Positions 2,445 through 44,300 of a stretch of DNA of 64,000 nucleotides are shown here, in pieces. Position 1 is the stretch's first letter; each line of letters begins with the position of its first letter. The notes beneath the pieces were generated by a model, which searched no databases, was not told the origin of the DNA, and saw nothing but the letters and a program-made list of their open reading frames with translations. The translations under genes and the position numbers were made by a program. Origin of the DNA: Ginglymostoma cirratum (Eukaryota); the NCBI GenBank assembly GCA_024137785.1, contig JAHRHZ010000019.1:32220019-32284018 (forward strand), given 5' to 3'.

Positions 2445-2669
2445 GTGGCAGCGATGGTTGGGATCCAATATTTGCACACAGCTCTGGAGAGCATTGCAAA
2501 TCCTGAAGATCCTGAATGTGAAAGTGAGGGTTGGTTAATGGAGAAAGGTCTGAAGGAAACATTTAAATCTCTGCTGGAAAGTGTTAAAGAGCTAGGTAAG
2601 TTCAATCAAGTAGCGACAGCTGAAGAGGGGAAAAATGAAGATGGCACAACTGTTGCCACAGTCAGCTGA
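2445..2669 (+). CDS. PRPH2: Peripherin-2, last coding exon (end of TM4 and cytoplasmic tail)
   Basis: Pyrimidine-rich acceptor ctctgttttag|GTG, then VAAMVGIQYLHTALESIANPEDPECESEGWLMEKGLKETFKSLLESVKELGKFNQV...*. Matches the recalled PRPH2 tail ([28 protein letters not shown]...LESVKKLGKGNQV). Tail-to-tail with UBR2 as in human. Confidence 0.93.
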   Translation: MAAMVGIQYLHTALESIANPEDPECESEGWLMEKGLKETFKSLLESVKELGKFNQVATAEEGKNEDGTTVATVS

Positions 2670-4510: not shown

Positions 4511-6895
4511 CTTCAAACAAAAAAACTCAGAAATTCTTCATAATCTATCAAAAAACACTTGTATCGGCAGAGCATCCTAAACAGAAATTAAGTGTCACAG
4601 GATACTTTATATAAGAAACAGATGGAACAGGATGGAAGAAACAGCAATGAGGAGAATACATTCTGAGCAAACTTTCAAAGACAAAAAGTGAAACAATAAA
4701 GCAAAAAAAGAGTGAGTCAGTTACAGTGAGGGACCTGCATTTCTGAAAGCTCTGTCACCAACGAGGGATGTTAGAAGGAAAAACAGAATACATAACTGGT
4801 CAAAATCCCCATGTCTTCTAACTGAGGGTATGACCATCTATGTCCAAGTACCTTTCCCTGATGAAACTGTTATCTATGCTTTTGCTGCTGCACAACTCAA
4901 CTTTCTTCACCAGCATCCAAACTCTATCGTGACACATTGTACCTTGCAGAAAAATCTAAGCTGACACTAAATTTACTTGATGTTCACTGCTGTTATCTCT
5001 AACTTCTTGAATCACTGAATTCAAAATTCTCGTGCAATTTTACGAATGTCTTCATGGGCTTGCCTCACGTTATTTCTACAATGTCTTTCATGCCGTGTGG
5101 TGAACTAGGATATCAAATTCAGTGCAACAAGTAGAAGCCATTGGAAACTGTAGATAGCAGCAGTGAATGACAAGTAGACAGTGTGGGTAAGTTTGTGTAG
5201 TGATGACCTCTGGATGCTGGTAAGAAAGCTGTGATGCCACAAAAGTATAGATAAAGGTTTGAACAGAAGGTGATACTCAGTCTTGGTGATGGATGGATCT
5301 ATCTTCAATTAGAGGAATGGAACAGCCCAGGACATGACTCTTTTCATAATACTACATTTTATATAATCCTGAATCAATTGAGGCAATAGGCACAGATTGG
5401 TGCTATGAATGCCTCCTCATTTCTTCAAATGTTCCTTCTCATAACAAGGAACTCTTATGGTGAAGCTCCAATGAAATACTGATAGGTGCCAGCTACAAAC
5501 ACTTATCTTAGATTTCTTGGATACAAGGCAAAAGCTACAGTATTTGCTTTTATGCTTTTCACAGTTTCTTTTTGATGATGTTGAATCCTTGACAGAATAC
5601 TGTTAACAGTGAACAGTGTTGTGTTTTATCAAATTGTTAATTTGGACACAGGAACAGATTTTAAGAGGGTTGAAAAGCTCAGTGTTAATATGCAATCCTT
5701 CTCGAAAAAAACAAACATACATAAATTATAACATTTTTGATTTGGAAATTAGCTCCCTTCATATCTGCACATGACTACAAATTGTGAACAAACTTGCGTC
5801 AAAGATTCATAAACAGGGCCATTCTAAAAATGAGATGAACCTATGCTTCCAGCAGAGTGGCTTGTTCCTAGTTCTTCAAATCTCAGCACTTACTTTGAAC
5901 TACATTTACATTTGCGTTGCACAAGTGCTTTCCCATGTCTTCACATGAGTGGGATCAGTAAGTGCTGCTAATTTTACAGTGAAGACAGGGAGACACCACT
6001 ATATAAAAGAAAATGGATGGAAGGCAAGAGAGCTGCAAATTTGTATTTAAATGCTGACACTTAAACTTTGTTTCCCCAAATGCAGTGATTGCATATGCAT
6101 GAACAAACTTGGCCTACATACTAACAACCTGGCAAATCAGCTTTGAATTAAATAGATAGAGTGAGGAAAATGGTGTTATTGTTAAGTGAACATCTAGCTT
6201 CATTAGCATAGATGTACGAAGCAGTAACATTTTATGGGAATCTATTGTTTGATCTAGATTGAAGAACAATTCCTTCAGGTAACTCAGTCAACATTTCTGC
6301 TGTAAAACTGAGACACAACTGATTATATTGAAAATAACAAGAAAATATACCAAGAACAAGGGACAGATTAATTTATTCTAAATCTGGACTTTCCACATAT
6401 GAATTCATTTAAAAGAGTATTAGCAAACTGAAAACAGTCAATATTTGAAAATAGCTTTTGTTTCCCATTGGCTAGAATAATCTCAACTGTAACCATGGTT
6501 AAGTGCAATGTTAAATCAATTTTTCTAAACAGCATTTTGTCAACACAAAGTAAGTGACTTGTGGTATTAGCATTTTCCTTAAAATAAAACTGTTTATAAC
6601 ATTTATTCTGAGCCCAAATTTATAATACTGCTAAATAACTGTTCAACAATGAACACCAGAAAGTGCAGGATGGTGAAGTGAGTAGATGGAAATACCCAAG
6701 AATGGTTCATCCTACCAGGGTTATTCATGGTAATGCAAAGGCAACAAACTCTGACAAGTTTCCCTTCATGTAAACTAACTCATACTATAATGCTTTCAAT
6801 TGGAGATCATAGGATCTCTCTCTGCAACTTGCAACAAACTAAGAGAGCTCTTTGATCCATTTTTCTTGTCACACAAAAGAACAATGCTGAAGTAA

Positions 6896-7114
6896 GAGAC
6901 AACAGTGTGGAGCTGGAGGAACACAGCAGGCCAGGACGCATCTGAGGAGCAGGAAAGCTGACGTTTTGGGTCGGGATTTTGGGTTCAGATTTCTGAAGAA
7001 GGGTCCTGACCCGAAACGTCAGCTTTCCTGCTCCTCAGATGCGTCCTGGCCTGCTGTGTTCCTCCAGCTCCACACTGCGCTGTCTCTGATCCCAGCATCG
7101 GCAGTTCTATCTCT
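6896..7114 (+). mobile_element. Fold-back Penelope-like (PLE) terminal-repeat element, copy 1
   Basis: Perfect 64-bp inverted arms 6903-6966/7014-7077, one-sided ~30-nt tail, 14-bp direct repeat caatgctgaagtaa at 6882-6895 and 7115-7128. Confidence 0.8.
6989..7024 (+). ncRNA. Putative minimal type I hammerhead ribozyme
   Basis: CTGAAGA-A-GGGT(CCTG)ACCC-GAAAC-GTC: core boxes, stem II and GUC triplet intact; stem I very weak. Confidence 0.6.
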
Positions 7115-8419
7115 CAATGCTGAAGTAACACCTTTCTCATATACACTACAGCACAAGATAGAATTGTGCAATTTTTGTAATATTAAGAAGGACCTCACCA
7201 TAATTGTTCATGACCAATCCTTTTAATCGATAACTGGTAACTTGAAAACTATAGTTATTCAGTATCTTTTGTCTATCTATTTAAGTCAACAGAAAAAAGC
7301 CACTAAACTTTAAACAGCTTTAACACTTCTCTGTATTACTGTTTTGAAAATACTAGCCAGTGAATGATGTATAAAACTATTGTACTACAAGTAAATAGAA
7401 CATATTCTATGATTTAACAAAAACTACTGTGGTTATTTCATCTCAGAACAGGAACACCCACGGAAACAACAACGGGCAAATGGAATAATGGAAGCAAAAG
7501 AAGCTTCATAATTTCCTACATTTCTTCCTCCTGTAGATTGCATTTATAACAAACAGGATGCAACAATACTTGAGCTCTCCCCCTGCTGAAGAGAATTTGT
7601 GCTAAAGGACTCCATGGAAGCAACAGCCCTTAGATACTTAGTGTGATTGGCCATTTTTGAGTGTGAACTTGATTCTTAGGTAGATCAATTCCATAACTGA
7701 CAAAGTTGCAGTCAAACTTTACTCTATTCACAGTGGCAATCACAAACCTTCCAGCAGAGGCAAATAAAGAAGGATCATGTGAAAATAGTCTTTTTTTCCC
7801 AAGCTATGAAGCAAAAACATTGAGAATAACTGCAGCAGACTTCTTCCATTGCAGTCGAGGGGCGAAACTCAAGGCAGCTTGGAAAGTGCAACTAAAATCA
7901 TGTTACACATGCAGGAACTGTCAAAATTACATTTGATGAAACAAATCAAAGTGCATTTGTACAAACACAAAAGCAGATAAATTTATAGTAAATCTAACTA
8001 CCTACAGTGCAGGTTTGTGTCTCCAACTGAGAAAATATTTGGAAAGGCCAAGGTCAACATCGCCTAAATATTCAAAACTGCAAAAGTTAATCTACAGAAT
8101 GGACGAAGTAAATACATTTAAACAAAAACCAGCTGAGAATAAATCTTCTAATTAAGATTTATTAACACAACATAAACTTATGCTTATCATAAACTAATTC
8201 AAAGTAACTTATTCAATATTATACAGTATTTCATTAATGCCAGCGAATTTTCATTTATTTTTTGCATCTTTTCAACTGTCTTGAAATGTTACTTCAAGGC
8301 GGAGTAAATAGGATTATATGCTAAGAAAATAATCATCTTACATTTCAAAATATCATTTAAAACTGCAACTGCAAGCTATGCCAGAATTATAGAAATACAG
8401 TAAGCTCATGACTTGACAG

Positions 8420-12150: not shown

Positions 12151-12369
12151 TCAAACAAACTTTGCCACCAGACCTCCCACTAATTCTTGCCCAGAACCTC
12201 ATTATCTTGGATACACAATTGTGCACATATGTTGCATTCTTCTCTGTTCTGATTGAAAACATTAACTTTGTTTCTCACTCCTCAGATGCTGCCAGATGAG
12301 TATTTTCAACACATTGAGTTTTTGGGGTTTTTTTTGCCTCCTTGCTGGCAGCCTTCTGATTCACATTCT

Positions 12370-13479: not shown

Positions 13480-16400
13480 AAAACCTTTCAACACCAAAAG
13501 CATTTATTTTGAATTTTGAGCTTTTTTTTATACATATAGTACATAGTACCAATTATACATGAATTCAACATATATTAACAGCCCATTTATTACAAGTATT
13601 CTCTCAAATACTGAAAGTATTCCTATTTTATAAACATTTCTACAGTGAACGTAAATACATGCTAAACGGTTTCATGAGAGGAGAATGCACAATAGAAGAG
13701 AATATGGTTAACTTAAAGTATTAATACGACAAGGAAAAGAAAAGAAGGTGTGCTCTCTGTTTCAACAATACATACGTTAGTTTCAAACTAAACAGAGTTC
13801 TTGCGGCTTTGTCAGATTTTCATCTATATTTGTAACAGGGTCAACAAACAATGGGAAAACAGAACAGTGTCACTTTCACAACAAACTGTGCTTAAGTTGA
13901 ATGGAAACAAAATTATCTGGAAGACCAAACATACACTAATGTTATACCCAAATTGCAGCACCTGCGTATTTTCATGTTTATTCAAGCATTAAAAAGTCTT
14001 CCTGTCTTGACTCTATGTAAAATAGAAAATCTCTAAAAATGGACCTTCCATTTTTCAAAGATGCAGTAATGCACAAGATTTTATCTACTACTTTTACCAA
14101 TACACAAACGTAGTTAATCTATTTCATATGCCAGTGGCGTGAGGCCTGTTAAACAGATTCTGTGGTGGTCTATTCTTCGCATGGAAATAATATCAACCTT
14201 CATTGATCTCAATAACACAGTCACAAAGAAACAATGGGTTTTAAGAAGCATCAAAATCTTTTCCAACAAGAGACGATATTGTAAGTAGTACTTAGTTGAA
14301 GAACAGTAAGGTTTAAGTGTTACTAGAACAGATATATTGCTAGGAGAACGAAACAGCATTATGATCCAGTAAAAGCTTGAATCAAAATTTAGAAAAACAG
14401 ATGTGTTAAATTTATATGGTGTACCTCAAACTCGAGTTTAAGATTTGAATACACTGCTGGATTTCAAGCATTGTATATATAAAATTTAGTAATATATGCA
14501 TAAAAACTTCAATAAGTAATTCATGTCAAGCTATGGAAAACAAAAATGGCTACTTTCAAAGATCAATGTAGAACAAGACAAGAAAGTGCAGTGTTAGTTG
14601 CAATGAAAATCATTGGAGGATATAGAGTTGATTCATTTATTCTCAGCAACACAGAGGTCATTAAAAAAAGTGAAGAAAATACATCCTTGTGTTCCTTTAC
14701 AACCATGGAGACACACAAGCCTGAAGACAAGGCAGGAAAAAAGAAACACGTGTGGTTCTTGAATCAGCAGACTGAGTTATTAACAAGGACTGGGCCTTGT
14801 AGGATTGGAATAAGTTAAACAAGAGGGAATACAAGAGGATTGGTATTGAATGGATAACAACAGGACAGTATTATAAACTAAACCACGACAGTTAGATTTA
14901 AGGGTATTTACTCAAAGTAATAAAAAGCAATTTAACTGACATAACTGAACGGATTATTAGTTAGGGTTGCAAGAGTGTGAAATTGATCTGAAAAAACTAC
15001 AGAAGCTGTGACATTCAAACAGTAGGATCACTCTGGATGAATAAACTGAACAGCTTTCCTTGTACATATCGATCTTCCAAAATAATCAGAATTGTGAAGA
15101 ACGAGAACCAGTATGTAGTAACAAAAGTCTAGGTGTCAGCACTGAATGCAAATGTCAAACAGTTAAAAAAAAAAACACTTCCCTGATAGACATGTTGGAA
15201 AGCTATGTTTCCACAGAATTGAATTTTCTAGGTTCTGACAAATTTATAAACAAAGTTAGCTAAAAAGCCATAAAATTTGTTATTTTCCTCAAACTTTATT
15301 CACAACGGAAAATCCAATTATTACATTATGCTTAGTGTTACAAGTCCAGAACCGATTTTTTCCTTATTTAATTTTGGATGGCTACAAAACAGCATTATTG
15401 AAAATAATTCCTAGTTAGCCATGTTTTGTGCTGAAGATTTCCATCATACCTTCAGCAGCTGCCTTTTAAATGAAACAGGATTAATTATTTCCCCTTTGTT
15501 TAAATTGTCCATCTCAGGAGGAAATACTTCACATTCATGAAAATTCCAGAAAAAAATACTGCAGCACAAGCAATCCAATAATAATGGCTTTACTGCTTCA
15601 CCCGGGACCAGAAGGACGTTTGTCAGATTCCTCACCTCCCCCACAAAATTTAAAGTAGTAACACACATGAAGATCATCTTTGTTCCGGTTTTACTCACAT
15701 TTTGAACACCAATTTTTAACTGTCAACAACTTAGCTGAAAGTGTCAAATGGTGTGTTTCCACATTTAAACTGTATGCTGGAGCTGTTAATAGGACCAGAA
15801 AGACCACACCGACGGCTAAAAGCAACAAAATATGTTGCTTATGTTCATACGCAAAATTAGTTTTAAATCAATAGAAATTAGTATACTTACAAACACTTGG
15901 GCATTCATGACATACACAAGAACTGAATCATACCCATATGTGACCACATTTTATGAAGACTAAACACAGTTTTTGAAGTATTAACACAATTAATTAGCTC
16001 ATTTTACCACATCCTCAACAAAAGTGTTTCATGAAGTTTGATAATTATGGAGCAAAATGCTCCATGATGCCGTGCAGACTGTCTTACTTAAAATATACAT
16101 TTAATCATACCTACTTCATTTTGTTTGAGATGCTTCTTTACTGGCTTCTACAAAGCACTGTATATTGGCCGAATAATATGTGCTTGAAACAATCCATGAC
16201 CAACTCCAGCCAAAGAATAACAGAATCATTGAGTTTTGCAAGGTACATGTTAACAAGCAGGTTCTGACTAAAGTCTGAAGTGAACATTTGATAAAAGGAA
16301 TGCTCCAGATAAGCAAAGACAAAAAAAAATTAAAACTAGGAGCACTTCCTCTTGGCTTACCATCATTCCTATTAAAAGTATATTTCAAGAAACCTCTAGT

Positions 16401-17215
16401 TAATTCTTGCAATTTAGAATAAAATCACCGAGTTAACTGCCCTGATTAGAGCCACTGCTTGCATACGACTTTTTTAAAAAATAAATTCATAGTAAACTGC
16501 ACATTATAAAATAGCTTTATATATCCTTTAAATACATTTTACAATATATTTTTGATAGCGCACAAATAGTAAGATCTTTAACACAAGAAGAAGTGGCAAA
16601 CTGCTTTTTTAGCTGACGAAAATCCTTCTTATTCTGGTGACCACAATATTCAAAGTTTGATTAGTTGACTGAAACCAGATGCACACCTTAAGAAAGCACA
16701 TTCACAAAATCGGTGTAAAGTGAATAAACTACTATGGAATCAAGACAAAAGAGAGGGAAAGCAAAAAAAACTTCCAATTGAAGGCCAGCAATCTTTTCCA
16801 CATTTGATCCGAAATTGTTCATTAGACATCACTAACTATAGAGCACAGAAACACACTTTGGATGTCCATATTGTATTACTCCAACACCTGATAAATAATG
16901 ATGATTAAAAAACGGCGGCTTTGAGGATGTGGGCTTTATTATCCCAAAATGTTCCACCTTCGTGGAGAAAATTTCAAGTGCAAATAAAGTGAATGACATC
17001 TCTTTAAAATACGCACTTCACATGCAATCCACATTTTCATAATAACAGGTGAACAGTTATGTAGTCTTTTTTAAAATCACTGTAATTCTGAAGTAAGTGT
17101 TTCAAAATGGGTGGCCTGAGGTGTACTTTATTAAACCTGATCCTCTGACTTCCTGCAAGAGGACTGTTTTTTGCTTCAGGATGTGCCAAGTGCCTACAGT
17201 TCTATTAGGAATTAA
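13480..17215 (-). other. UBR2: Probable long UBR2 3'UTR
   Basis: AU-rich with no recognisable transposon. Minus-strand AATAAA at 17127-17132, 16935-16940, 15295-15300, 13586-13591 and 13503-13508; the last is followed by a U/GU-rich tract. Confidence 0.55.
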
Positions 17216-17357
17216 TCACAAGTGCTGCCAGTCAATGCCAACTAGCGTCTGATTTGCTTCTTGTGCATGACCAATCTCCTCAGTGATGCTATGTTGCTGC
17301 CACAGTTTCTGCAGCTTCCTGTACCGCTCTTTGCAGAGATGAAGGGGATTCCCTCGT
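17216..17357 (-). CDS. UBR2: UBR2 last coding exon (26/26) [46 protein letters not shown]
   Basis: ttcag| acceptor; TGA stop at 17216-17218. Confidence 0.97.
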
Positions 17358-20300
17358 CTGAAAAATGCAATTCAAGTAAGATTACCGTTGTCAAGTATTT
17401 AGCTTTATACATTCACCTTCTTCACGTCAAGGAGAGAAAACATATAATGCTCAAGAAATAAGCAGTCATAGTCAGTAGTATCTGGGATTCAGTAAGGGAT
17501 AAGCAAATTCATTCACGTTGACGTTTGTGTAGAGAAAAAGTGGATTAATAACCATTTGACAAATTATTGAGAATTAGCCTTGAGAATCATGTTAAATATT
17601 GCAGAGATAAACTGCTAGAATGGGCGAGAATATTCACTAATTAGCTATAATTTGATGACTTGTAAGATTGCAGAAATGCTCAAAACAGGGCCACATGTAT
17701 TAAAAGAAAACTTTTCTGGCATTATGATCAAGAAACAGGTAGCCTAAATAGAATAAATCACACAGAATAATATCTGTACAAAAGATTACATGACAAATAC
17801 ATGCAGACAATCGTTGGAACATTTAATAAAAAAATCTGAACTGGTGTATGTTCTTTCACTAAAAAGTGCAGCCCACATTTGTATTAAAAAATATTTTAAC
17901 TTTTTACCTCAGTCCCTGATCTGTCTCTCCATAATCATCAAGGTAAGGCGGTGGATAAAAGCACCCTTTTGTTTTTCCAGCCAGGAACAAAATCTGGCTG
18001 TCTCGAACTCTGAAAATGTACAACAACCATAACAATGTTAAAACTGTACACAATTTAGTTTTTTTTTTTTACAAAGCACTGTATTTGGGTATCAATTTCT
18101 CATTCTTCTATTAATAAAGAATCAAATCATCAGATGCTCTTATAATTCAGTTCTCTGACCAAACATTACTGAAATGCTGCCTTTTGGAACACAGTTGAAA
18201 ACTAGGGTTATAGTGTCCTGAAGCAAAGGATTTCAGTGCTTCAATTCTGAATTAACTCCACATCACAATTACAATGATTCATACTTCACCATGATTGTTA
18301 CTTGTGGAACTGGTGAAGATGGAAGTGTCTGTTAGGGGTTACAACAATAAGATTAAGGTTTTAACTCACCGCAAAAAAATTCCAACTCCACAACCACAAG
18401 TGTAGGTATGAGCAGTACAGGCCCCAACATCTTCTCCTTCCAGTTCTGTTTGACAGCAGTAGCTCTGAGAACACAGCATTCCCCCACAGACCAAGCAGAG
18501 TGTTGGTGCCCGACTTTTATCCCCACCTGATTTTGGACATCTATTTCAAATTGTAAAGAAAAGTAAAAACTTTGGCACAGGTGACAATTAAGTATAAACA
18601 GATGAAATTCACTTATTGATACTTTGATGGGAAAGAATGTGAAATGTTATTTGCCCCTTGTAATGGGAATTGTCTGCTAATTCAGCATCATTTTATGATG
18701 CGCTGGTGTGATGTCAATTTTATTTGGAACAAGTCCCCACTTTACAGTTATTAGAGGGCTAAGTCTAAAACTATACGTGACATGTCAATGAAATCATATA
18801 CATCATCACAGGACGTGGTGCAATGTCACACTATGGTGCCTTTGCTTGCAGACTCGGAAAGAGATGAAGCCAGACATAAGATACTTCTTTTAAAAAAAGT
18901 TAGGCCTAGAAATTCCAGTCAGGGTCAGAAGTCCTATTCTCAACAACAAAAACAGTAGTTTCTGGAAAAGGTCGGCAGGTCTGGCAGCATCTGTGAAGAA
19001 AAATATCAGATTTAGCGTTTCAGGTCCAGTGAACCTTTGTCTGAACAATTCTCAACCCTGGTTAGATTAAACATTTCTGGGCAGAAACGCCAGTTAGAAC
19101 CGAGCCAGGAATCCTGAAATCCAGTAGTAGGGAAGGTTATTGTAGAAACCACACCCTCTTTTACAGCACTAAGTGCTGTACTCTTCAGATTAAGTGTCAA
19201 GCAAACACTGGCAGCTACTGTGAATGGGCAAGTATCTTAGGTAAGTGAAGGGGTTAGGGTAGCAGGTTGGTAAGGGGTTAGAAAGGCAGGGGAGTACAGT
19301 GTAAGGAATCAGGGTCAGTCATGGAGTATGGTCTGGCAGAAAGATGCATATTGGCTTGGATGATGGAGGGTGTTGGGGGCCAGTGCAAAGGATATGGGGT
19401 GGTGTTCAGTGTGCAGCCAGAAGTGCCAAGTGGATGATCTATTTTGGGTCCCTCCTGAAGTTCCCCCCATTACATAAATATCAATACATTGCTAAAAGAT
19501 ACTGGATACTGCAAAGGCTTGAACAACAAATCCACAATCGTATTGAAGACTTGTGCTCCAGAACAAGCCAGGCCACAAGCCATGATGTTTTCGTGCAACT
19601 ACAACAATGCCATCTAGCCAACTTTGCAGAAAATGCCCCAAGTACGTGCAGTGCATAAAAAGTAGGTTAAATCTAACTTGGCTAATTATTGCCCCATCTG
19701 TCTACTCTCAATCATTAGCAAAGTTTTGGAAGGATACTATCATGCAGCACTTACAAAGGGATAACCTGCTCACTGATACTCAGTTGCATTCCAGCTTCTG
19801 ACCTTATCACAGCCTTGGTCCAAACACAGGTAAAGAGCTAAACTCCATATTGAGGTCAGAGTGACTGCCCTTCACACCAAGGCATCATGTGACCATCATT
19901 TAAGCAAAACTACAGTCAATGGTTATCAGAGCAAAATCTTTGCTGGTTGTAGTTATACCTAGGAAAAAGAAAAATAGTTGGGGTTGTTGAAGGTCAATCA
20001 TCTCAGTCCAATGACATCACTGCAGGAGTTTCTCAGGATAGTGTCCTGGATCCAACTACCTTCCTGTTCTATTAATGACCGTCCCCTGTCATCAGGTCAG
20101 AGGTAGGGATGCTAGCTGATGACTGTATGACATACAGCACTTTTCATGACTCTGCAGGTTCTAAAGAAGTTCATGCCTAAATGCAGGAAGACCTGGATAA
20201 CATCCAGACTGCAATGATAAGAGGCAAGTAACATTTTTGCCTCACAAATACCAGGCAATGGCCATCTCCAACAAGATTAATCATTGACCCTTGACATCCA

Positions 20301-26300: not shown

Positions 26301-29300
26301 AGCTCACCTACTGATAGCCATTTCTATTACAATGACCCAATCTAGTTTCAATACATTCAAGGAGCTTGTGTTAGCTTCATTTATACTGAAACCTATTTGA
26401 AAGAAGCTTGCCTCACCAAACATGCTTAGAAAAATCAACTATGAATCAAATCAGCAAGAGGACATTACTATTTATCAACAATTTGGTACAAATTCCATTG
26501 GTTGATGTGTTTTGTTACATTTTCCATGTTCCACATACAACTCTGCCCATTCAAATCAGGCCCAAATAAAGGATCCTTCATAATGAGTTCATGCTGTAGA
26601 CAATGGCAGAATATTGTGGCAAGATGGGCAGCACAGTGGCTCAGCAGTTAGCACTGCTGCCTCATAGCGCCAGAGACCCAGGTTTCATTCCAGCCCTGGG
26701 CAACTATCTGTGTGGAGTTTGCATATTTTCCCCCGTGTCTGCGTGAGTTTCCTCCCACAGACCAAAGACGTGCAGGTTAGGTGGATTCGCCATGCTAAAT
26801 TGCCCACAGTATCCAGGGATGTGCAGGCTAGGTGGATTAGTCATGGGAAATACAAGGTTACAAGGATAGGGTAGGGAAGTGGGTCTGGGTGGGATGGTCT
26901 TTGGAGGGTCGGTGCGGACTCAATGGTTCAAATGGCCTGCTTCCAAGCTGTAGGGTTTCTATTACTCTATGATGCAACGATGCTGAAATTGGAAGAAGAT
27001 ACCAAATGGGGCCTATTATGACTTGGGACCAGTAAAGACTTTTTTGAAGTTGAGAAAATGCAGACAATAGAGCCACAAGATGCCATGAAATAATGAACTT
27101 CAATACACAACGTCAGAACTATAATACAATCTATAAGACAAAGAAAATTACATTCTAACATCGAGAATTAACACGAAATAAACATGAGTTAGAAAAAGTG
27201 ATCAAATAGTCAACAGAACACATCAAAATAACAAATAATCAAGACTGACACCAGAAATTTCTCAGCAACTTTCTCCAGGCATTAACAAGAGTGGTGATCA
27301 TCAAACCTCATTGTATTTCACAAGGGATGACAATTCTTCACTTGGATGATCTGGCCTTGAAACTCCCTCAAGAGCCACTCCATCATGGATGGCCTCAACA
27401 CCTGTACAAATTCTAGTTGATCACCTGCCTTTCCTGGGACCACACTGCCCTGAATTCTGGAAACTCTACTTGTACTTATTCAGACACAACTGCAAATTTT
27501 CACCAGGCTAGTTACGTCTCAGGGTTTTTCAGAATTCCAATCTTGCTCAGTTGGATCAAGCTGCCTCTGTCACACATTGCCTTAGCAGTGGGTCCAGCTA
27601 CCTATTGGGCTTTGAACATCTCTTCCTTAACCTTTGACTGCTTGTAATGGCCTATTAAAAATCTTCCAATAACACCCCCAACCCATCCCTTGTTCTTATT
27701 TGGACTCCAAAAGTAAATTGCATCTTAAGCTAGCTGGCCATATGGAAATCCTGTCTACAATAAACAGGACAATTAAAACTGAGCCATTTACTTTCATGAC
27801 AGTCTACTCTTCATTATCAAAGAGTTATCACCAACAATGCTGTCAAGTGACACTTGCTCAGCAATATCCACTCCCTGATGCTTCGTTTGGTTTCTGCCAG
27901 AGATGCCAGTGTTAGTTCAAATGTGGACAAAAGAATTGAATTCCAGAGTTGAGTTCAGAGTGGCTGTGTTTGACATAAAGGGAGCATTTGACCAAGTGTG
28001 GCACCATGGAGCCTGAGCGAAACTGAAGGCAATCAGAGTCAATGGAAAAACACTCTGCTGGTCAGAATGATAGCTGGCACAAGGGAAAACAATTATGATT
28101 ATTGGCAATCAATCATCTCTATCACCGGATAGCACTACAGAAGCTCCTAAGGGTGGCATACTAGGCCCAACAATCTACAGCCCCGATATCAATGACCTTT
28201 CTCCCATCATAAAAGTTAAAGTATTCACTGATGATTGGATAAAGCTCAGCACCAATTGCAACTCTTCAGATACTAAAGCAGTCAGGATCTGTGTGTATAG
28301 GAGGTGATTAATGGCAATTAACATTTGTGTCAAAGTAGCGCTGGTCGATGGCTATCGCCAACAAGAGAATTTAACAACAGTGTGGAGCTGGAGGGAACAG
28401 CAGGCCAGGCAGCATCGGAGGAGCAGGAAAGCTGATGTTTCAGGTCGGGACCCTTCTTCACCTGACTCGAAATGTCAGCTTTCCTGCTCCTCCGATGCTG
28501 CCTGGCCTGCTGTGTTCCTCCAGCTCCACACTTGTGTAATGTGACTCCAGCATCGGCAGTTCTTACTATCTCTGAGAATTTAACAATATCGCTTTGCAAT
28601 TCAGCGGTATTACCAGCAGTGAATCCATCACTATCAACGTCTTTGGTCGGACCACTGATGAGAAACTGAACTGGATAAATACACGGCTACAACAGCAGGT
28701 TAAAGGCAAGTAATGCTGATGCAATTAACGGATCTCCTGTCTCTCCAGTGACTGCCCATCATCGACAAGGCACAAGTCAGAAATGAGAAAGCATACTCTC
28801 CACTTGCCTGGATGGGTGCAGCTCAAAACAATACTGAAGCAGCTCAACACAATTCAGAACAAAATAGCCCTCTTGACTGGTATACCATCCACCACCTCAA
28901 CATTCAGTCCCTTTTCCAGCAATACACAGTAGCTGCAGCAACGACAAGTTGCAAACCCACAGCCTCTACCATCTGAAAAGGAGATGGGCAGTGGGTGCAT
29001 CCCAACAAGTTAAACTCAAAATTACACACCATCTTAACTTGGAACAACATCACCCTTTCTTCACTGTCACTGGAATTCCTTTCCTTAGACTAAGTAGAAC
29101 GATCTGGCACCTCAATGACTGCAGCGGTTCAAGAACACACATCATGGCAACCTTCGAGGGCAATTAGGGGCTGGTCAAGAAATGCTAGCTGAGCCAATGA
29201 CACCCATTTTCCGTGAATAAAGTTTTAAAAATTACAGGACAAACCACAACATAAAATTCACGACAATAAATCTTCAGTAAATGTGAGTGCCCTTTTATGC

Positions 29301-35300: not shown

Positions 35301-38300
35301 ATAAGACATGCAACAAGGTACCTCACAAAAGGTTAAGTCATAAAACAAGGGCCCCTGGTGTTGGAGGCAGTATATTGCCATGGCTAGAGATTTGGTGAAT
35401 GGGCAAGAAACAGCAAGTGGAGATAAGGGACCCCTTGTCAGGTTAACAATCTGTAACTAGTAGGATTCCCCAGAGATCAGTGTTGAGTCCGTGACGGTTT
35501 ACAACATGTATTAATGATTGGAGGAAGGAAGCAAATATACTGTAGCCAAGTTTACAGATAACTAAAATAGGTAGAAAGGCAAGATAACAAGGTGTGGAGC
35601 TGGATGAACACAGCAGGCCAAGCAGCGTCATAGGAGCAGGAAAGCTTGACGTTTCGGGTNNNNNNNNNNNNNNNNNNNNNNNNNNNNNNNNNNNNNNNNN
35701 NNNNNNNNNNNNNNNNNNNNNNNNNNNNNNNNNNNNNNNNNNNNNNNNNNNNNNNNNNNNNNNNNNNNNNNNNNNNNNNNNNNNNNNNNNNNNNNNNNNN
35801 NNNNNNNNNNNNNNNNNNNNNNNNNNNNNNNNNNNNNNNNNNNNNNNNNNNNNNNNNNNNNNNNNNNNNNNNNNNNNNNNNNNNNNNNNNNNNNNNNNNN
35901 NNNNNNNNNNNNNNNNNNNNNNNNNNNNNNNNNNNNNNNNNNNNNNNNNNNNNNNNNNNNNNNNNNNNNNNNNNNNNNNNNNNNNNNNNNNNNNNNNNNN
36001 NNNNNNNNNNNNNNNNNNNNNNNNNNNNNNNNNNNNNNNNNNNNNNNNNNNNNNNNNNNGGGTCCAGGCCCGAAACGTCAAGCTTTCCTGCTCCTATGAC
36101 GCTGCTTGGCCTGCTGTGTTCATCCAGCTCCACACCTTGTTATCTCGGATTCTCCAGCATCTGCAGTACCTATGATCTCTTCGGTAGAAAGGCAAGTTAT
36201 GACAGGGATACTAAATGTTTACAGAGAAATAGTGATAGGTTAAATAAGTGGGCAAAAAACTGGCAAATGAAGTACGGTGTAGGAAAATATTAAGTTGCTC
36301 ATTTTGGAAGGGAGAACAACCAACACCATTATTTAAATGGAGCAAAATTACAGAATGCTGCAACTCAAAGAGACTTCAGAGTACTTGAGCACAAAACATA
36401 GAAAGCAAACACAAAGGTGTAGCAGGAAGGCTAAAGTAAAGCTGGCCCTTATTTCAAGGAGGTTGGAATACAAGAGGAGGGAAGTCTTACTGCAATTGTA
36501 CAAGGTGTTGGTGAGACCAGATCTGAAGTAATGAGCGCAGTTTTGGTCCCCTTATTTACAGAAAGACATAATTTCATTAAAGTTATTTCAGAGATGGTTC
36601 ACTAGCATGATCCCAGGTATGGAGGGTTTGTTTAAATGAACAAAGACTAAACAGGTTAGGACTTCATTCGTTGGAATTTAGAAGAATTAGCAATGATCTC
36701 ATTGAGACATAGTGGATTCTTAAAGGACTTGACAGGGTAAATGCTAGGATGATTTTTCTCCTCATAGGTGAGTCCATGGCCAAAGGACATAATCTCAGAA
36801 TAAAGGTGCCCCAACTTAAGACTGAGATGAGGGGGGAAATTTCTTTGTTCACAGGGTCGACTGTCTTTGGAAATCCCTGCCACACAGAGTTGTGGGGGCA
36901 AAGTCCTTCTGCGTATTTCAGGCTGAGATAGATAGATTCTTGATCAGTAGAGGAATCAAGGGTTACCAAAAAAGTGGATGTGAGGAATGCTGGATAAGCT
37001 ATGTTTTAGTGAATGGCAGAACTGGCTCGAGGGGGGTGAATTACATACTCCTGTTGGTACTTCTTATGGCTATGGTCTTATATACATATTCTGCATGCTA
37101 AGGTTTTCCCAGTAAGACTGTTGACAAATTTGTCATCAGCATTTTTAAAATCCTTCTTGAAAAAAATTCAAAAGCTGTTTACATTTTCCAATGTAATCTC
37201 TCATTCATTGTTTGCTCAACAGTCCTTATACATCTTCATCATTCCTACCTGCCGACATGGTAGATGACCAAACAGTGGCTTTTCTTCATCTGCTAGGAAA
37301 CGCTCTGGAAAAGAAAGAATAAAAAACATTTCTAAATGCTTACTCTAGTCTTGTTTAACATTGTTAAATTCAAATATTAAACTTTGCTAAAAGGAAATAA
37401 GTCAGCTTTTAAGTTCTGTACTACGAAGCAATTAATTTCAGATGTCTATACAAAATAGTCCACCACTTGGTAAATTTTACACAACATACAACTCTTACTT
37501 AATGTCAGTTTTATTGAATAAAGTCAACAAGGTTTTCAAATTATGACTCAGACGACAGTTTACTTAGCAAATAAAGCTGCTTATTAAAAGTAAATGCACT
37601 TAAATTTTGTTAATAGAACATTTAAATAAACATGTTGATTTAAATAGAGTACGCATTCTCTGAGGCTCACCTATTGCTTGTACTGTGTACGCACAGCTGC
37701 CCCGGCACATCATAGGCACTCGTGGATCCTGTTCATTGGGATGAACCTTGAGACCCACTTTGTATGTTGCTGTAGCCAAGGTTGTAAGCATCCCCTTGAT
37801 GCTTTCTGAGAAAGGATTCCTATTAACAGAAATGAAAAGCCACTGCAAGAAACATCTCAACCAGAAATATCTAAAAATGCTTAAGTGCAATCTTCAAGGT
37901 GTTTTCTTATTCATTCAGAGGATGAAGGCATTGTTGGCCTAGCCTGTATTCGATCCTCCAGCCAGAGGTCTGCTGCTTGCCGGCTCCTTTTCCTTGCTTT
38001 CTTTTTCTCCCCCCTCTTCCCACCATCCCCCAATTTGTAACTTCTTAAAGTACCCTACCTGGAAGGAATGGAGAACGGAGTCCAAGACCAGCCTAACGCA
38101 GAGGCGGGAGCAGAGCGAGTTCGGGCCAACTCCTGGAAGTGAGCCACAGCCAGAAGGGGAGCAAAGCTACTGTGGACCAAGTCCCGGAAGTGAGCCACGG
38201 CCAGAGCTTGAAGCAGGAGCGAAGCGAGCGCAGGCTGAGTCCTGGAAGTGAGTCGAGGCCGGAGCCCAGAGCGGAGCACAGCAAGCACAGGCCGAGGCTT

Positions 38301-41300
38301 GTAAGCAAGCCACGGTAGGAGCAGCAGCAGAGCAAGCATGGGCCAACTCCTTGATGTGAGCCACAGCTAGAGTGGGAGCTGAGCTAGTGCAAACCAAGTC
38401 CCGGAAGTGAGCCACGGCCAGAGCCTGGAGCAGGAGCACAGCGAGTGCAAGCCCGGCAGGGGGACAGAGTCCTAGAGGTGAGGCCGGGACAGATACCAGT
38501 GCATGGAGACAGTGAGGCCTCGAGTTCTGAAGCCTAGCGGGGCACGGACTCAGTGGAAAACGACTATTACTCAAGTACTTGAAAGATACTTTTTATAATC
38601 ATTCCGGACTTTTTAAACCCCGTATTCCCATATTAGTCTATTTTTTTCAATTCTCTAACAACACAAAATATCTATAACTAGGTACCCTGTACCTAAGATG
38701 GTGCCGAGAGGCAACATTACAAACTTTTCACTGCACTCATTTAAGTACATGTGACAATAAAGGTTAGTCTATGAGACTCCATTTCCAGTATTTATTGAAT
38801 CCAAATTCCACCATCTGCCATGGTGGGATTTGAATCCAGGTCCCTACTACATTACTGGGGTCTCCGGATCAACAGTCTAGCGATAATAGCACTGGGCCAG
38901 CGCCTGTCCATATCAAGCCGACCGAACTTGAAAGAATAATGGTTTGATGTTGTAAATGGGTGCATTAAAGAAATCTGCTTAATTTGCCATAAAGCTGATT
39001 TGTTTTCCTCAACAATGAAGTCTCCAGTATCTTTACTGTGATATCAAGAAAGACTAGGAACAATCTGTGGCTGGAAAGATTGCCAAAAGATAGGATGTCC
39101 TATAGATTAACACACTTATTGCCGAAGAGCTGACATCAGATGCAAATGACCTTAAAGAAATAAAGGATAACAAGGACAGAACTCCAAACTCAATTCTCTG
39201 CACAGGCAGTCCGACAATGATTGCCACAGATTAAAAAAAAAGGTGGTGTTCTATAAATGTTCGCTTTGGTTTTAGTCCCCAGATGGAATATCATATTTGA
39301 AACGATAGAAGGTGCAGCTCTAATTTATGATTTCATAACAAACCGTAAAGATAAAGAAAATTAGGGCTACCTTGAAATTAATACAACTGTTGATTGATCA
39401 AGTTACATACTTTGGTTTTATATCGGGTTGAAATCCCTCAGGGACCTCCATTCCTTCTAGGTGGGTGTTGGAAAGATTATCTGAAAGGAAAAATAAATGG
39501 AGATACTGTGACTGATCTGGTGATCTTGTAAAGCTATTTTATGTTGCAAATTTATAAATTAGTTATATGCTCATACAATGAAGCTCATTTAAAGCCAACT
39601 CTGAAAACTCAAATCAAGGGTGGGCAACTAAATAAAATTTAAAACCACATGGAAACCTTGAAATATTTCTTTCCTTTATAAAAATAATCATTTTTCTAGC
39701 ACCTCGAATATATATAAAAGAACCTGCATGTCATTTTGGGTCATGGAAGTCAAAACCTTCCCAGGTTAATTACTACTGTTTGATGTATGCCCGTCTTGTC
39801 AAGTGCTTCCAGAATTCTGTTCTTAATCGCATATTAACATTGGCAGGGGAGGGTTTGCAGAACATAAATAGACAGAATAAAAGTAAATGTATATTCCAAA
39901 ATTGAATTTTTGAATATGATTAATGAAATTTAGCAATTTTTAAATAAAAGAAAGCACTACATCAGTTAGTTTGAACTTTGAGTAGTGAGTTCGACCTGAT
40001 ATGAAGGGTCCTGGTTCTTTCTCCATAGAAGTTAACTGGCCTGCTGAGTAGTTCAGATTTCCAGGATTCACAGTATTATGATACAATCTTAACTGGAGAC
40101 AAACATACACAACTCACTTCCATTGTTGAATGACAGGAGTTGGGGCATTAGCAATGAAGTTTTCCAGATCCTTTAATAAATTGTCATGACTTTGCTCATG
40201 ACTTCATATTGTTTCACAACACAGGATTTTAGCAAACATGGTTCAAATTCAAGAATTTTAATATGGGTGAAAATTTGACTTGCGTTTCTTCTAACAGAAG
40301 AACTGTAGCCTGAATGGCACACAATGAGAAACAAATATGATCACATATAACCCATTAAAATAATAAACTGTTTCTTCTGAGGCATTCGATATTAGATTCT
40401 CAAACGTGAGATCAAGTTAGGGTTCTTTAGGTGAGAGCTATTTTATGATGCTCATGAGACAGGAATTAGGAGATATTCTGAAGTTTTCATCACTTATTTT
40501 ACTTGTACAATAACAATTTCATCTTGAAAGATCTATATAGATGGGTGACCTTTTATAGATAAATGTCAAACAAACTTGATTGTTCAACACAATATCACAG
40601 GCAGAAGTATAAATTATCTTTCCTATGAAAAATCTCCCTTGTAATCATAGAAATTTGTATCTTGCAGCAAGGTATTTTTCGCTTATATTCTCATTTTATT
40701 GTATGTTTAACAAAAGGACATGAAACAAAAATTAAGCGTACATCTGATTTTCGTTTTGAAGTACCTGTTTGCTTTTCTTGGATTTTCTTCAGGGCCTTCA
40801 ACTGTTGCAATGTACGTTTCAGCCAATTCGATAAAACAGGAACACCTGCATTGTTTTTTGAACTGTCACTGAAAACAAAAGCACAGGTTTAATTAAACTG
40901 GTAGATGCGCCCAAGTTTCCTCTTAAACCAAATATTTTGCTCCAGTGTTGCTTCTCGAACTGAGTCAAGTAAAACATACAATAACTTGAGCATTTAAATG
41001 AACAAAATCTCAACATCAATGTCTCAGGAAATTAACTCAAGAAAAAATACTGAAGTTTGCAAACCACAATCTTGAGGGATTTTCCAGAACGGCAAGCACA
41101 CAATCTTTTGTTTTACTTGCCAAAGTTGTCAATAAACAAACTCAACATTCAACTACTTAATGTATGTATTCAATGAAGACATTTACAGGTAAGTACTCCA
41201 ACTGATACAGATTAGACTCAGGAGCACGATATGATGATTATGTCTATGGAGTTGGTTGAAGAAGAAATGGCCCAGATCTCTGGCACTCAATACTGTTGGA

Positions 41301-44300
41301 GACCAGGCATCTGTTCAGCCCCAGGCAGAAGACAATTCTCTGGTCACAGCCATAAATGACTTTGTGCAAAGGCACAGGCCCCACAACAGCCAACTGTTTA
41401 GCTAGTATGGAAAGATCCCAAAATGTAATTTTCCAGGAATACATTTTCATCTACAAAATACCACAGTATTTTGACAATATTGACATGCAATGAGGAGGCA
41501 TGCATTATGATATTTTACAGCAATTTTTTTTCCTTGAAAATTTTCTTCGTTTTTTGGGTTTTCTTAAATATTCTTAAGGGTCAAAACTAAACCTTTTACA
41601 TCGAACTTACCATGACTTATCCAGTTTTACACCATTCCAATAATCTCTTGTACTAACCTGTTTTGTACAGCCTTGGCCCTGTTCAAACCATTGACACTGC
41701 AACCAGGGCAAGTCTCCCAATTATTTTCTCCTTTCTTGTAACTACAGTGCAACAGCTTCATTTATTCTGTGTTTGTGTAGCACTCTTCAACACATCTAAA
41801 TATGCAATTGTATTGTTCAGTGGCTCTATTTCTATTTGTCCTAACACAACTGACACCATTCCAGCAATGTTTCCTCCTCCCTTTCCACATGGTTATCTTG
41901 GATAACTGCAACATTTCATCCTTGATATTTTCTGTATGTATACTGTTGTGACCCAGCTCTATGCCTCCAATTCCTTCAGCCACCTTTATTAAAATATCTA
42001 GGATTAATTCATCAATGAAAAACAAGTTTCTTCAATTGAGCATTTGGTCCAGATCAAATTACATATGAGAAATCCACTCCAGAATCCTAAAATTGCTGGG
42101 AAAAATTTACTCATGGGGTAACCAGATAAAAGTTACTCCCTTGAATAGAATGGAAGGCAATGGTGAGGAGGCACACTTGTTGACTACTGCTGCTCATCTT
42201 GCTCCTCCAACCACAGGGTGATTCCTTGCTTACTGCTGACAGGTTCACTGTGAAATACAGAGAGCTGGAGAAACTCAGCAGTCTAGCAGCATCAGTGGAG
42301 AGAAAAAAAATAAAGTTAATGTTTGGAGTCTGATACAACTTCTTCTGAACAGGCTCACTATGAACCATTCATCAGCAAGTGTGGAAGAGAACCAGTCTGT
42401 GATTGAAGCAGTGAGTGGCCACTGGTCAACAAAACAAGAGGTATTGAGGGTGGTAACAGAAGCAAAGGTGGGCTGCTGGGCAAAGGACCAAGAGTAACAA
42501 GCAATGCTAACAGGCCTGGGGGTGGGATAGCTGTCAGGGGTTGGACAGGCTGCAGAGTAAGGGTCAGGCAGACAGACTGTGAAAATAAGTTCGGGTGCAG
42601 GAAAAGAAGAATTGTCAAGGGGAAGTGGGGGCTCCTAAAAGGTGACAAATATGTTCTGGAAAGGATGAGATGCATCTGAAAGGGAAGAGTGGGCCTGCAA
42701 AAGGAAGAACACAGTTTTTGATTTTCGTTAATAGAATACTCACCGAACTGGGCACATGAAAACTGAGGTAATGAACTCCTTACAAAGTAGTGTGAAGTTT
42801 CTAGATTTAAAATGGGAGTTCAGGAACGACTAGAAAGGGGACATGTGATGGAGGCTGTTATAATGAACATGATGTCAATTGCATAATTTAATATTACACT
42901 GTTGTATTTCATAAAGCTTTACATCTTGTTTTATTATAGCTCAAGTCTTCATGTTCTGAATTACTGGAGATGCAGTTTTACAACAAACATGCCTGTTTTG
43001 CTGAGACCTTGCCCGACAACAAAAATTGTTTTTACAGTAATGGTGTCTTGAGCATAGAGGCATATCAGTTTACTAAAAAAAATAATGATTACTAACTTCT
43101 GCCTATTGTCTTATGCCAATTTAAATATTGCAGTACACAAGAAATTAATGGTTTCCTCATGAGTTGCAACGTTAAGTTTAGTGGAGTGGTGATGGAGTTA
43201 TTTGAATTCTGCTTCTGAGAACTCAAATGCACCATATAGCCACAAAAAAAAAAGACAGATAGTATTGTTGCTCAATTATTGAACTAGCAAATGAACAAGT
43301 TAGTGAGACCGAGAAAAGGAGCCAGTGAAAACAAAAAGCAGCCTTTGAAAATTTAGAACTAGTCCTCAAAAGAAAGCAAGAGACCATGAAGAAAATAAAA
43401 AATTAAACCATGATTCAGTTCTTATACCATGGCAAAGTCAGAGAATGACATTTGCAATGTTGGTCAGAGTTGTTTTTATGCATTGGGAGCAACGGGCATT
43501 TGATTGGAGGGATTTAAATAAAATTTCAGGAAAGATGGACACAGACCTGGCGGACAGCAGAGTTGAGGGCTTTGAGAAGTAAAGGGATATTGGGGATGGT
43601 GCATCTATTGGAAAACCAAGCAGGCAAATTCAGTCAAATACTTCTACAAGGAGATATTATAGGAATCTTGAAAGGCAGGAGTATAAAAAACCATTTATGT
43701 CAGTGGACGGTTGGGAAGTTCATGGAAATAGGTTCATGGGTACAGGGACAGGTTTCATAGCTGACAGCAATATGAAAGATTGACATTAGAAAATGTTGAC
43801 AAAGTGTGGCATTCACAAAAAAGCCTGGGCAAGATTTAGTGAAGAGGAAAGCAGTATAAATTTCTGCGCGGATATATTTCAGTAACAAACAAAAACACAG
43901 CAGTAAAGAGGCAGAGGACGGGAAAGGACTTCAAAGTTATTTTTGCACGTCAGGATATTTCTAGAGTAGTGTCAAAGCTTTTGTAAAGCAGAGATGTGGG
44001 AGATAACAGATGAATAAAAACAGCCAAATTAATTGCAGTGTGAAGTGGACAGACAAAAGTTCTATCAAGCACCAATACCAGCTAGATTAGGAACATAAAG
44101 CTGGAGTACAGTAGGCTATTTATTCCATTAATGTAGGTAATGCAATAATCTAACCTGTTCAATGGGTTTCTAGGAGAGGGAAGTAACGGAATAACAGTGT
44201 TGCTCAAACATTCACACAGTGGACAAAGAAATTCTCCATTCTCCACATCATAGCTTGTGTGCACTCTTAACCGCTGCTGTCTCCGCTGCTCCTTTGCTTG

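Follow-up and report, generated by a model that had tools for sequence, protein, structure and literature searches.

Hammerhead Ribozymes and Insertion of Penelope-Like Elements

Penelope-like elements (PLEs) carry minimal hammerhead ribozymes in which, according to Cervera and de la Peña (2014; PMC4209133), an additional base stands between positions 9 and 10.1, the pair 10.1–11.1 is G–C, and positions 15.2–16.2 are palindromic. In fishes, coelacanth, and Xenopus, single genomes are reported there to contain thousands of these motifs, most of them solitary or in opposite-strand pairs. Moreover, minimal PLE hammerheads with longer stems than the one described here are already poor cleavers, the monomer giving no cleavage and dimers low cleavage (PMC4209133). 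Cleavage by hammerhead dimers is also attributed to Lünse et al. in a review (PMC6765202), and a hammerhead has been described in the 3' UTR of rodent Clec2 (PMC6155905).

An inverted truncated copy, a one-sided tail of 30–40 bp, and a flanking duplication are the standard products of PLE insertion (PMC3846280, PMC8557442, PMC2377424). In the Poseidon system, the purified protein nicks and extends both DNA strands, reverse transcription starts at two internal positions of the RNA, one at either end of the tail, and insertion proceeds without need for ribozyme cleavage, the ribozyme cutting only in the presence of the protein (Frangieh et al. 2024; PMC11167929). Penelope-like repeats are reported to have expanded in a shark genome (bioRxiv 10.1101/443036), and hammerhead retrozymes have been reported in one chondrichthyan genome (bioRxiv 10.64898/2026.07.22.740005). 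No direct description of shark PLE hammerheads was found in the literature searched; sharks are unnamed in the examined text of PMC4209133 and in two of its three supplementary files, and supplementary file 1 may list shark examples.

The locus described here lies in a 64-kb stretch of carpet-shark DNA, hereafter the window. It holds a 219-bp hairpin that is likely a dead stub of a Penelope-like retrotransposon, with a complete minimal type I hammerhead inside that is predicted to be masked and non-cutting. The motif is most likely an ordinary passenger of this known class of elements.

The Hammerhead Motif

No conserved base of the minimal type I hammerhead is missing at 6993–7020 on the plus strand, where the core CUGANGA ... 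GAAA ... UH is complete. Its parts are the following:

6990–6992, plus strand: 5' strand of stem I and centre of the palindrome
6993–6999, plus strand: core box C3–A9 (CUGAAGA), from the sequence and the descriptor match
7000, plus strand: additional unpaired A that separates A9 from G10.1, characteristic of PLE minimal hammerheads (PMC4209133)
7001–7012, plus strand: stem II, 4 bp with a 4-nt loop and the closing pair G10.1–C11.1 (G7001–C7012)
7013–7020, plus strand: G12-A13-A14-A15.1, the palindromic loopless stem III (ACGU), and H17, which is C7020
7021–7022, plus strand: 3' strand of stem I, 2 bp

The two strands of stem II read GGGT (7001–7004) and ACCC (7009–7012) on either side of the 4-nt loop, G12 to A15.1 is GAAA (7013–7016), and the stem III palindrome ACGT occupies 7016–7019 with no loop III. 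Cleavage between 7020 and 7021 is a prediction from the consensus. Stem I consists of 2 bp, U6992–A7021 and U6991–G7022, followed by a U/C mismatch, beyond which three weak pairs are possible that add no predicted stability. The original prediction, made from the letters of the window, had the core and its coordinates right (CTGAAGA at 6993–6999, GGGT/ACCC in stem II, GAAA, ACGT, and C7020), as well as the stem I of about 2 bp, and its assignment to the PLE-type minimal type I hammerheads agrees with the features given in PMC4209133; in its layout of the core, A7000 between A9 and 10.1 had been missed.

In a hammerhead motif search, as it had proposed, a strict descriptor matched once in the 64-kb window versus not at all in 300 local 2-mer block shuffles, and a relaxed one matched twice versus a shuffle mean of 0.47 (maximum 4, 100 shuffles). 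The Rfam hammerhead families do not recognise the motif: there was no Rfam match at the gathering score over the whole window, and no hammerhead family was among the ten matches obtained at E ≤ 10 over 6850–7160. All ten are sub-threshold hairpins of the miRNA-precursor kind, and identity as a miRNA precursor was rejected, since the matches lie below threshold and reflect the long hairpin only. A pattern scan of viral contigs for further copies gave no match, and two pattern matches in metagenome contigs were rejected as family copies because their likeness is confined to the 26–29-nt pattern.

The Fold-Back Insertion and Its Relatives

The motif is contained in a 219-bp head-to-head fold-back insertion (6896–7114, copy 1) located between PRPH2 and UBR2. 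The insertion and the two other fold-back copies of the window comprise the following features:

6882–6895, plus strand: left copy of the target-site duplication (TSD), 14 bp, an exact match to 7115–7128
6896–6989, minus strand: inverted (left) arm, a tail-less element copy with a decayed second hammerhead (inverted repeat of 74 nt, 97%)
7023–7086, plus strand: main portion of the direct (right) arm, the complement of the left arm
7087–7114, plus strand: one-sided 28-nt tail absent from the inverted arm, the PLE "tail" (concept from PMC3846280 and PMC11167929)
7115–7128, plus strand: right copy of the TSD, 14 bp
28378–28573, no strand assigned: copy 2, a fold-back with a 13-bp TSD, a tail of ~41 nt, and both hammerhead halves broken
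35584–36182, no strand assigned: copy 3, a fold-back with a 14-bp TSD, a 37-nt tail, a 400-N gap at its centre, and identical arms

The direct arm as a whole spans 6990–7114 and extends 28 nt beyond the inverted arm. In the hammerhead of the left arm, G12 has become A and the 5' core is replaced after CTGAA; at 6965–6984, an 8-nt direct duplication occupies the place of the purine-rich part of the core, which suggests template slippage at the fold-back junction. Pairing of this upstream antisense arm with the ribozyme, as originally proposed, is borne out by predicted folds, to which it can be added that the arm is itself a decayed second hammerhead.

An exact TSD of 13–14 bp and a one-sided tail (28, ~41, and 37 nt) accompany all three fold-back copies. 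Copies 4 and 5 have TSDs of 10 and 9 bp, each with one mismatch, and the inverted arm is absent in two of the five family insertions. Copy 4 (53457–53555), which has no inverted arm and an imperfect 10-bp TSD, begins ~2 nt 3' of the cut-site position, and this start could reflect either a cleaved template or chance truncation. In copy 3, the assembly gap (35660–36059, 400 N) covers the 5' half of the core, the arms do not differ at any of 77 nt, and the visible 3' core halves on both sides of the gap are intact. It looks younger than the other copies, and two intact cores may lie head to head in it. Ribozyme remnants had been claimed for copies 2 and 3; the term suits copy 2, in which both halves are broken, but not copy 3, which cannot be called a remnant because its centre is a gap of 400 N.

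In total, the window contains five insertions of the family (eight arms) and six weaker profile matches, some of which look like a related decayed family. The matches at 42261–42332 (minus), 18962–19027 (minus), 39995–40050 (plus), 45955–46028 (minus), and 12249–12295 (plus) look as if they belonged to another repeat family, older and with hammerheads whose cores have decayed, and a long pyrimidine-rich stretch lies upstream of the one at 42.3 kb. Six degenerate tandem copies of a 51–58-nt unit are found at 38101–38452. A motif scan of the window for a PLE ORF gave only scattered chance matches, and PLE membership thus rests on architecture.

In a DNA run, the depth over the element exceeds that of the flanks by about five orders of magnitude, a figure that is a summed contig depth and not a measure of copy number, and that fits a family of very high abundance. 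From both flanks, contigs of a second organism enter the element (6580–6924 and 7094–7384), and the insertion is therefore older than the species split; the flanks of this organism differ from the locus at 59 of 1,629 bases (3.6%).

Predicted Folding and Masking of the Ribozyme

The element has a minimum free energy of −184.1 kcal/mol (z −22). In the ensemble of the full element, the probability of stem II is 0.000 and positions 7009–7022 are paired to the left arm at P ≥ 0.997, the 5' core being held in a small central hairpin of the predicted fold. When the left arm is removed, the probability of stem II is still only ~0.006. The predicted energy of the active dimer is −1.3 kcal/mol versus −17.4 kcal/mol for two free 44-nt monomers, and the penalty for forming this dimer amounts to 22.7 kcal/mol without the left arm and to 87.5 kcal/mol with it. 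Since nearest-neighbour energies omit tertiary and protein stabilisation, the gap between these two penalties is more trustworthy than either number. Capture of the core by the left arm is predicted once transcription reaches 7010.

Copy 1 is predicted to be non-cutting because its own mirror-image arm would pair over the motif. The folding model points to a ribozyme masked by its antisense arm and unable to cut, and to an active dimer that would be disfavoured even without that arm. The suspicion that this copy may be inactive can be sharpened to probable inactivity, given a modelled stem II probability near zero and a dimer penalty of 87.5 kcal/mol. As for the proposal that the fold-back locks the ribozyme, masking by the upstream arm is retained as a folding result, and a lock with a function is not, inverted 5'-truncated arms being a usual by-product of PLE insertion (PMC3846280, PMC8557442). 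The masking is real as a prediction, and nothing points to selection for it.

Decay and Conservation of the Core

Six arms of the family cover part of the core; one is complete, three are broken, and the remaining two run into the assembly gap. Comparison of the two arms within each of copies 1 and 2 gives seven differences in the ribozyme half, six of which are CpG transitions that include G12, 11.1, 15.2, and 16.2; the observed/expected CpG ratio of the window is 0.28. The chance that 15 key bases survive is 0.54–0.21 at 4–10% divergence and, with core CpGs being lost from the sister arms, chance alone would be expected to leave one core intact. This comparison lends no support to a special status of the intact core or to selection on it, as 21–54% of copies would be expected to be intact. 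The core of copy 1 is probably intact only because its two CpGs have not decayed so far.

The covariation check proposed for stem II, run on the eight arms of the window, showed no compensatory changes. The pair count gave one U–A/U–G change, with letters on both sides in four of the eight rows, two rows being misaligned and two truncated. The same U–G variant appears in stem II of the family read consensus, and a second subfamily with an intact core and this variant is seen in 1,415 loose-end reads. Gene conversion between arms was rejected as unneeded, since two differences in 74 nt fit the 3.6% divergence of the flanks.

Proposed Steps of Insertion

A PLE reverse transcriptase/endonuclease encoded elsewhere would make a 14-nt staggered cut in AT-rich DNA, and an uncut pseudo-LTR RNA would be copied from both sides of this cut. 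Copying would start at two internal sites bounding the tail, 7086 and 7114, and both copies would stop at the front edge of the ribozyme, where they would be joined in head-to-head orientation. The motif likely acts as a slow, protein-assisted dimeric hammerhead when it is part of the parent element. In any plus-strand transcript of copy 1, the antisense arm would emerge ahead of the core and pair with it while the cut site is still to be transcribed.

The arms themselves bear on the state of the template. In copies 1–3, all six arms extend 5' of the predicted cut site, which argues that the template did not end there. The two arms of one copy share copy-specific variants, and the junctions differ between copies. 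Among the best 15 of 184 joints from other genomic copies, seven resume at 6987–6995 and none at 7021 ± 2; in the other read set, 12 of the best 15 of 173 joints lie within the element, and five of these 12 resume at 6987–6995, again with none at 7021 ± 2. This pile-up is in part an edge effect, because the locus stops matching the family at that point. Loose ends at 6990 (1,599 reads) show an agreement of 0.35 and heterogeneous A/T-rich flanks. The start of copy 4 near the cut site, in one of the five family insertions, counts against an uncut template, as a cleaved one could be conceived there. Longer family copies, as seen in the loose ends, carry a C-rich tract upstream of the ribozyme at 6989, and its G-rich complement might stall reverse transcription where many copies stop. 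The shark family offers a useful natural record of PLE insertion: its arms end where the ribozyme begins and not at the cut site, in keeping with the copying of uncut RNA by PLEs that has been found in vitro.

Genomic Setting and RNA over the Element

The insertion lies downstream of a retinal gene, of which one exon is contained in the window:

2445–2669, plus strand: last coding exon of PRPH2 (match to 7zw1_A, E 1e-16; 97% to carpet-shark peripherin-2a)

Carpet-shark peripherin-2a is the best named match of this exon (97%), followed by other cartilaginous fishes, and with the exon at these coordinates the position originally given for the motif, ~4.3 kb downstream of the PRPH2 stop and on the strand of this gene, is confirmed. 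On the minus strand, a UBR-family gene ends near 17220. From synteny and the C-terminal sequence, it is presumably UBR2. It has an apparent 3' UTR of 3.7 kb (13518–17220, minus), and UBR2 and PRPH2 stand tail to tail with their stops ~14.5 kb apart. The UBR2 3' UTR was rejected as a transcript over the element, as its contig ends at 13518, 6.4 kb away.

Two of the sequencing sets, X1 and X2, come from the same study; X1 is not recorded as RNA, but behaves as RNA. One X1 contig (2443–3789, depth 9.7) joins other sequence at the PRPH2 splice acceptor, and another covers the UBR2 3' UTR deeply (13518–17359). Around the element, locus-specific contigs without differences span 5629–6897 (depth 4–11) and 7065–7429 (depth 2–4). 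Across the element, depth falls from 11 to 2–3 in X1 and from 6.4 to 4 in X2, and it is zero over 7431–7950 in both. The raw poly(A) reads of X21, apparently unstranded, reach a depth of at most 2 on both flanks, X22 contributes two reads, and 22,860 of the 12.9 million X21 reads examined belong to the family. No pile-up of read ends, at the cut site or anywhere else, was found in either read set, a low-power result given fragmented poly(A) RNA and a depth of at most 2 on the flanks.

With locus-specific contigs on both sides and no pile-up of ends, some RNA probably extends by read-through to the element and in part beyond it. The read-through RNA that had been anticipated over the site thus does appear to reach it, at a low level. 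The fall in depth across the element could be due to a cut, to the long hairpin, to low coverage, or to a nearby 3' end. RNA-like contigs at 5629–7429 are found as far as 4.7 kb downstream of the PRPH2 stop, with a depth similar to that of the last exon, and a long PRPH2 3' extension is possible from them. The X1 contig at 7065 matches 7065–7185 exactly but opens with 30 letters that have no alignment to the hairpin arm, for which editing or a template switch are possible explanations.

Alternative Explanations and Significance

The palindrome might be a self-contained, non-autonomous mobile unit of a retrozyme- or MITE-like kind, in which the antisense arm is a selected switch that frees the ribozyme only on unwinding of the RNA. 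Such a unit would suit the presence of three TSD-flanked fold-backs within 64 kb, the very high depth of the family in DNA and RNA runs, and the strong predicted masking. However, junctions and arm lengths vary from copy to copy, which a single mobile master would not give, two of the five insertions lack the inverted arm, and the tandem units that non-LTR retrozymes require are missing, so that this explanation is very unlikely. An ordinary PLE stub might instead cut at a low rate in cells, acting in trans with other family transcripts once helicases or proteins have opened the hairpin. The complete core, the 22,860 family reads in X21, the second intact-core subfamily with its 1,415 loose-end reads and U–G variant in stem II, and the protein-assisted ribozyme of Poseidon (PMC11167929) speak for such cutting, but the dimer interface would be restricted to 2 + 4 + 2 bp, at −1.3 versus −17.4 kcal/mol for two free monomers, and even with the longer stems of published minimal PLE hammerheads cleavage is poor (PMC4209133); cutting in trans is accordingly held to be highly improbable.

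Co-option by the host would place copy 1 in a long PRPH2 3' extension, where cleavage or the 87-bp hairpin would set the end or the stability of the RNA. The element is on the same strand as PRPH2, contigs run from the region of its last exon to 6897 at a depth of 4–11, drop to 2–4 after the element and to 0 past 7430, the insertion is common to a second species at 3.6% flank divergence, and Clec2 offers a precedent in rodents (PMC6155905). Nevertheless, RNA goes on past the element in X1, X2, and X21 with no pile-up of ends, the contigs may come from separate RNAs or from the other strand, a long hairpin alone can lower library depth, an intact core is expected by chance, and none of the listed contigs of the second species spans the core; the chance of co-option is judged to be very small. 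In its most elaborate form, an insertion fixed before the split of the two sharks would now act as a self-masked ribozyme switch in the 3' extension of this retinal gene, off until it is unwound or edited, with the cut then ending or destabilising the transcript. Such a switch would account for the drop in RNA depth seen over the element, and is just as improbable. Cutting of PRPH2 read-through RNA would, if true, lend copy 1 greater weight, because host-recruited hammerheads in vertebrate 3' regions are few. As a dead PLE stub, copy 1 is one of very many in shark genomes, and it illustrates that a hammerhead core of a vertebrate may look intact without this being evidence of function.

Comparison with Known Systems

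As in the minimal hammerheads of PMC4209133, the shark motif combines a full core, the extra base between 9 and 10.1, the G10.1–C11.1 pair, and a loopless palindromic 15.2–16.2 segment, and the copies are likewise single and dispersed, with nearby opposite-strand pairs. Its stem II is shorter than in Schistosoma (4 bp versus 7–8), and its stem I of 2 bp compares with 4–5 bp in Schistosoma and 2 bp in D. virilis, at the lower end of the published range of 2–5 bp (PMC4209133). The element shares with non-LTR retrozymes its short length, non-coding nature, type I hammerhead, and derivation from PLEs (bioRxiv 10.64898/2026.07.22.740005). However, these are tandem head-to-tail units, each with a ribozyme, whereas the shark element is one head-to-head fold-back, and the defining arrangement of at least two tandem units with complete hammerheads was not found at it.

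The insertion itself resembles those of Pen2a in Adineta (PMC3846280; scheme in PMC8557442), with a head-to-head inverted 5'-truncated copy, a palindromic junction, a tail on one side only, and a TSD around the whole unit. In contrast to Pen2a, the shark unit contains no ORF and measures just 219 bp as a whole; the TSDs of the fold-back copies are also longer (13–14 bp versus 8–10 bp in the Adineta examples of PMC3846280), and the 28-nt tail of copy 1 is slightly short relative to the usual 30–40 of PLEs. Poseidon of Anolis carolinensis (PAc; PMC11167929) differs in being autonomous and tested in vitro, and the likeness to it is one of layout. In both, copies seem to be made from uncut RNA, with no RNA-seq ends at the cut site, and the ribozyme lies shortly upstream of two start sites that bound the tail, at 66 and 94 nt from the cut site in the shark element and at ~85–92 nt from the cut site to the main start site in PAc.
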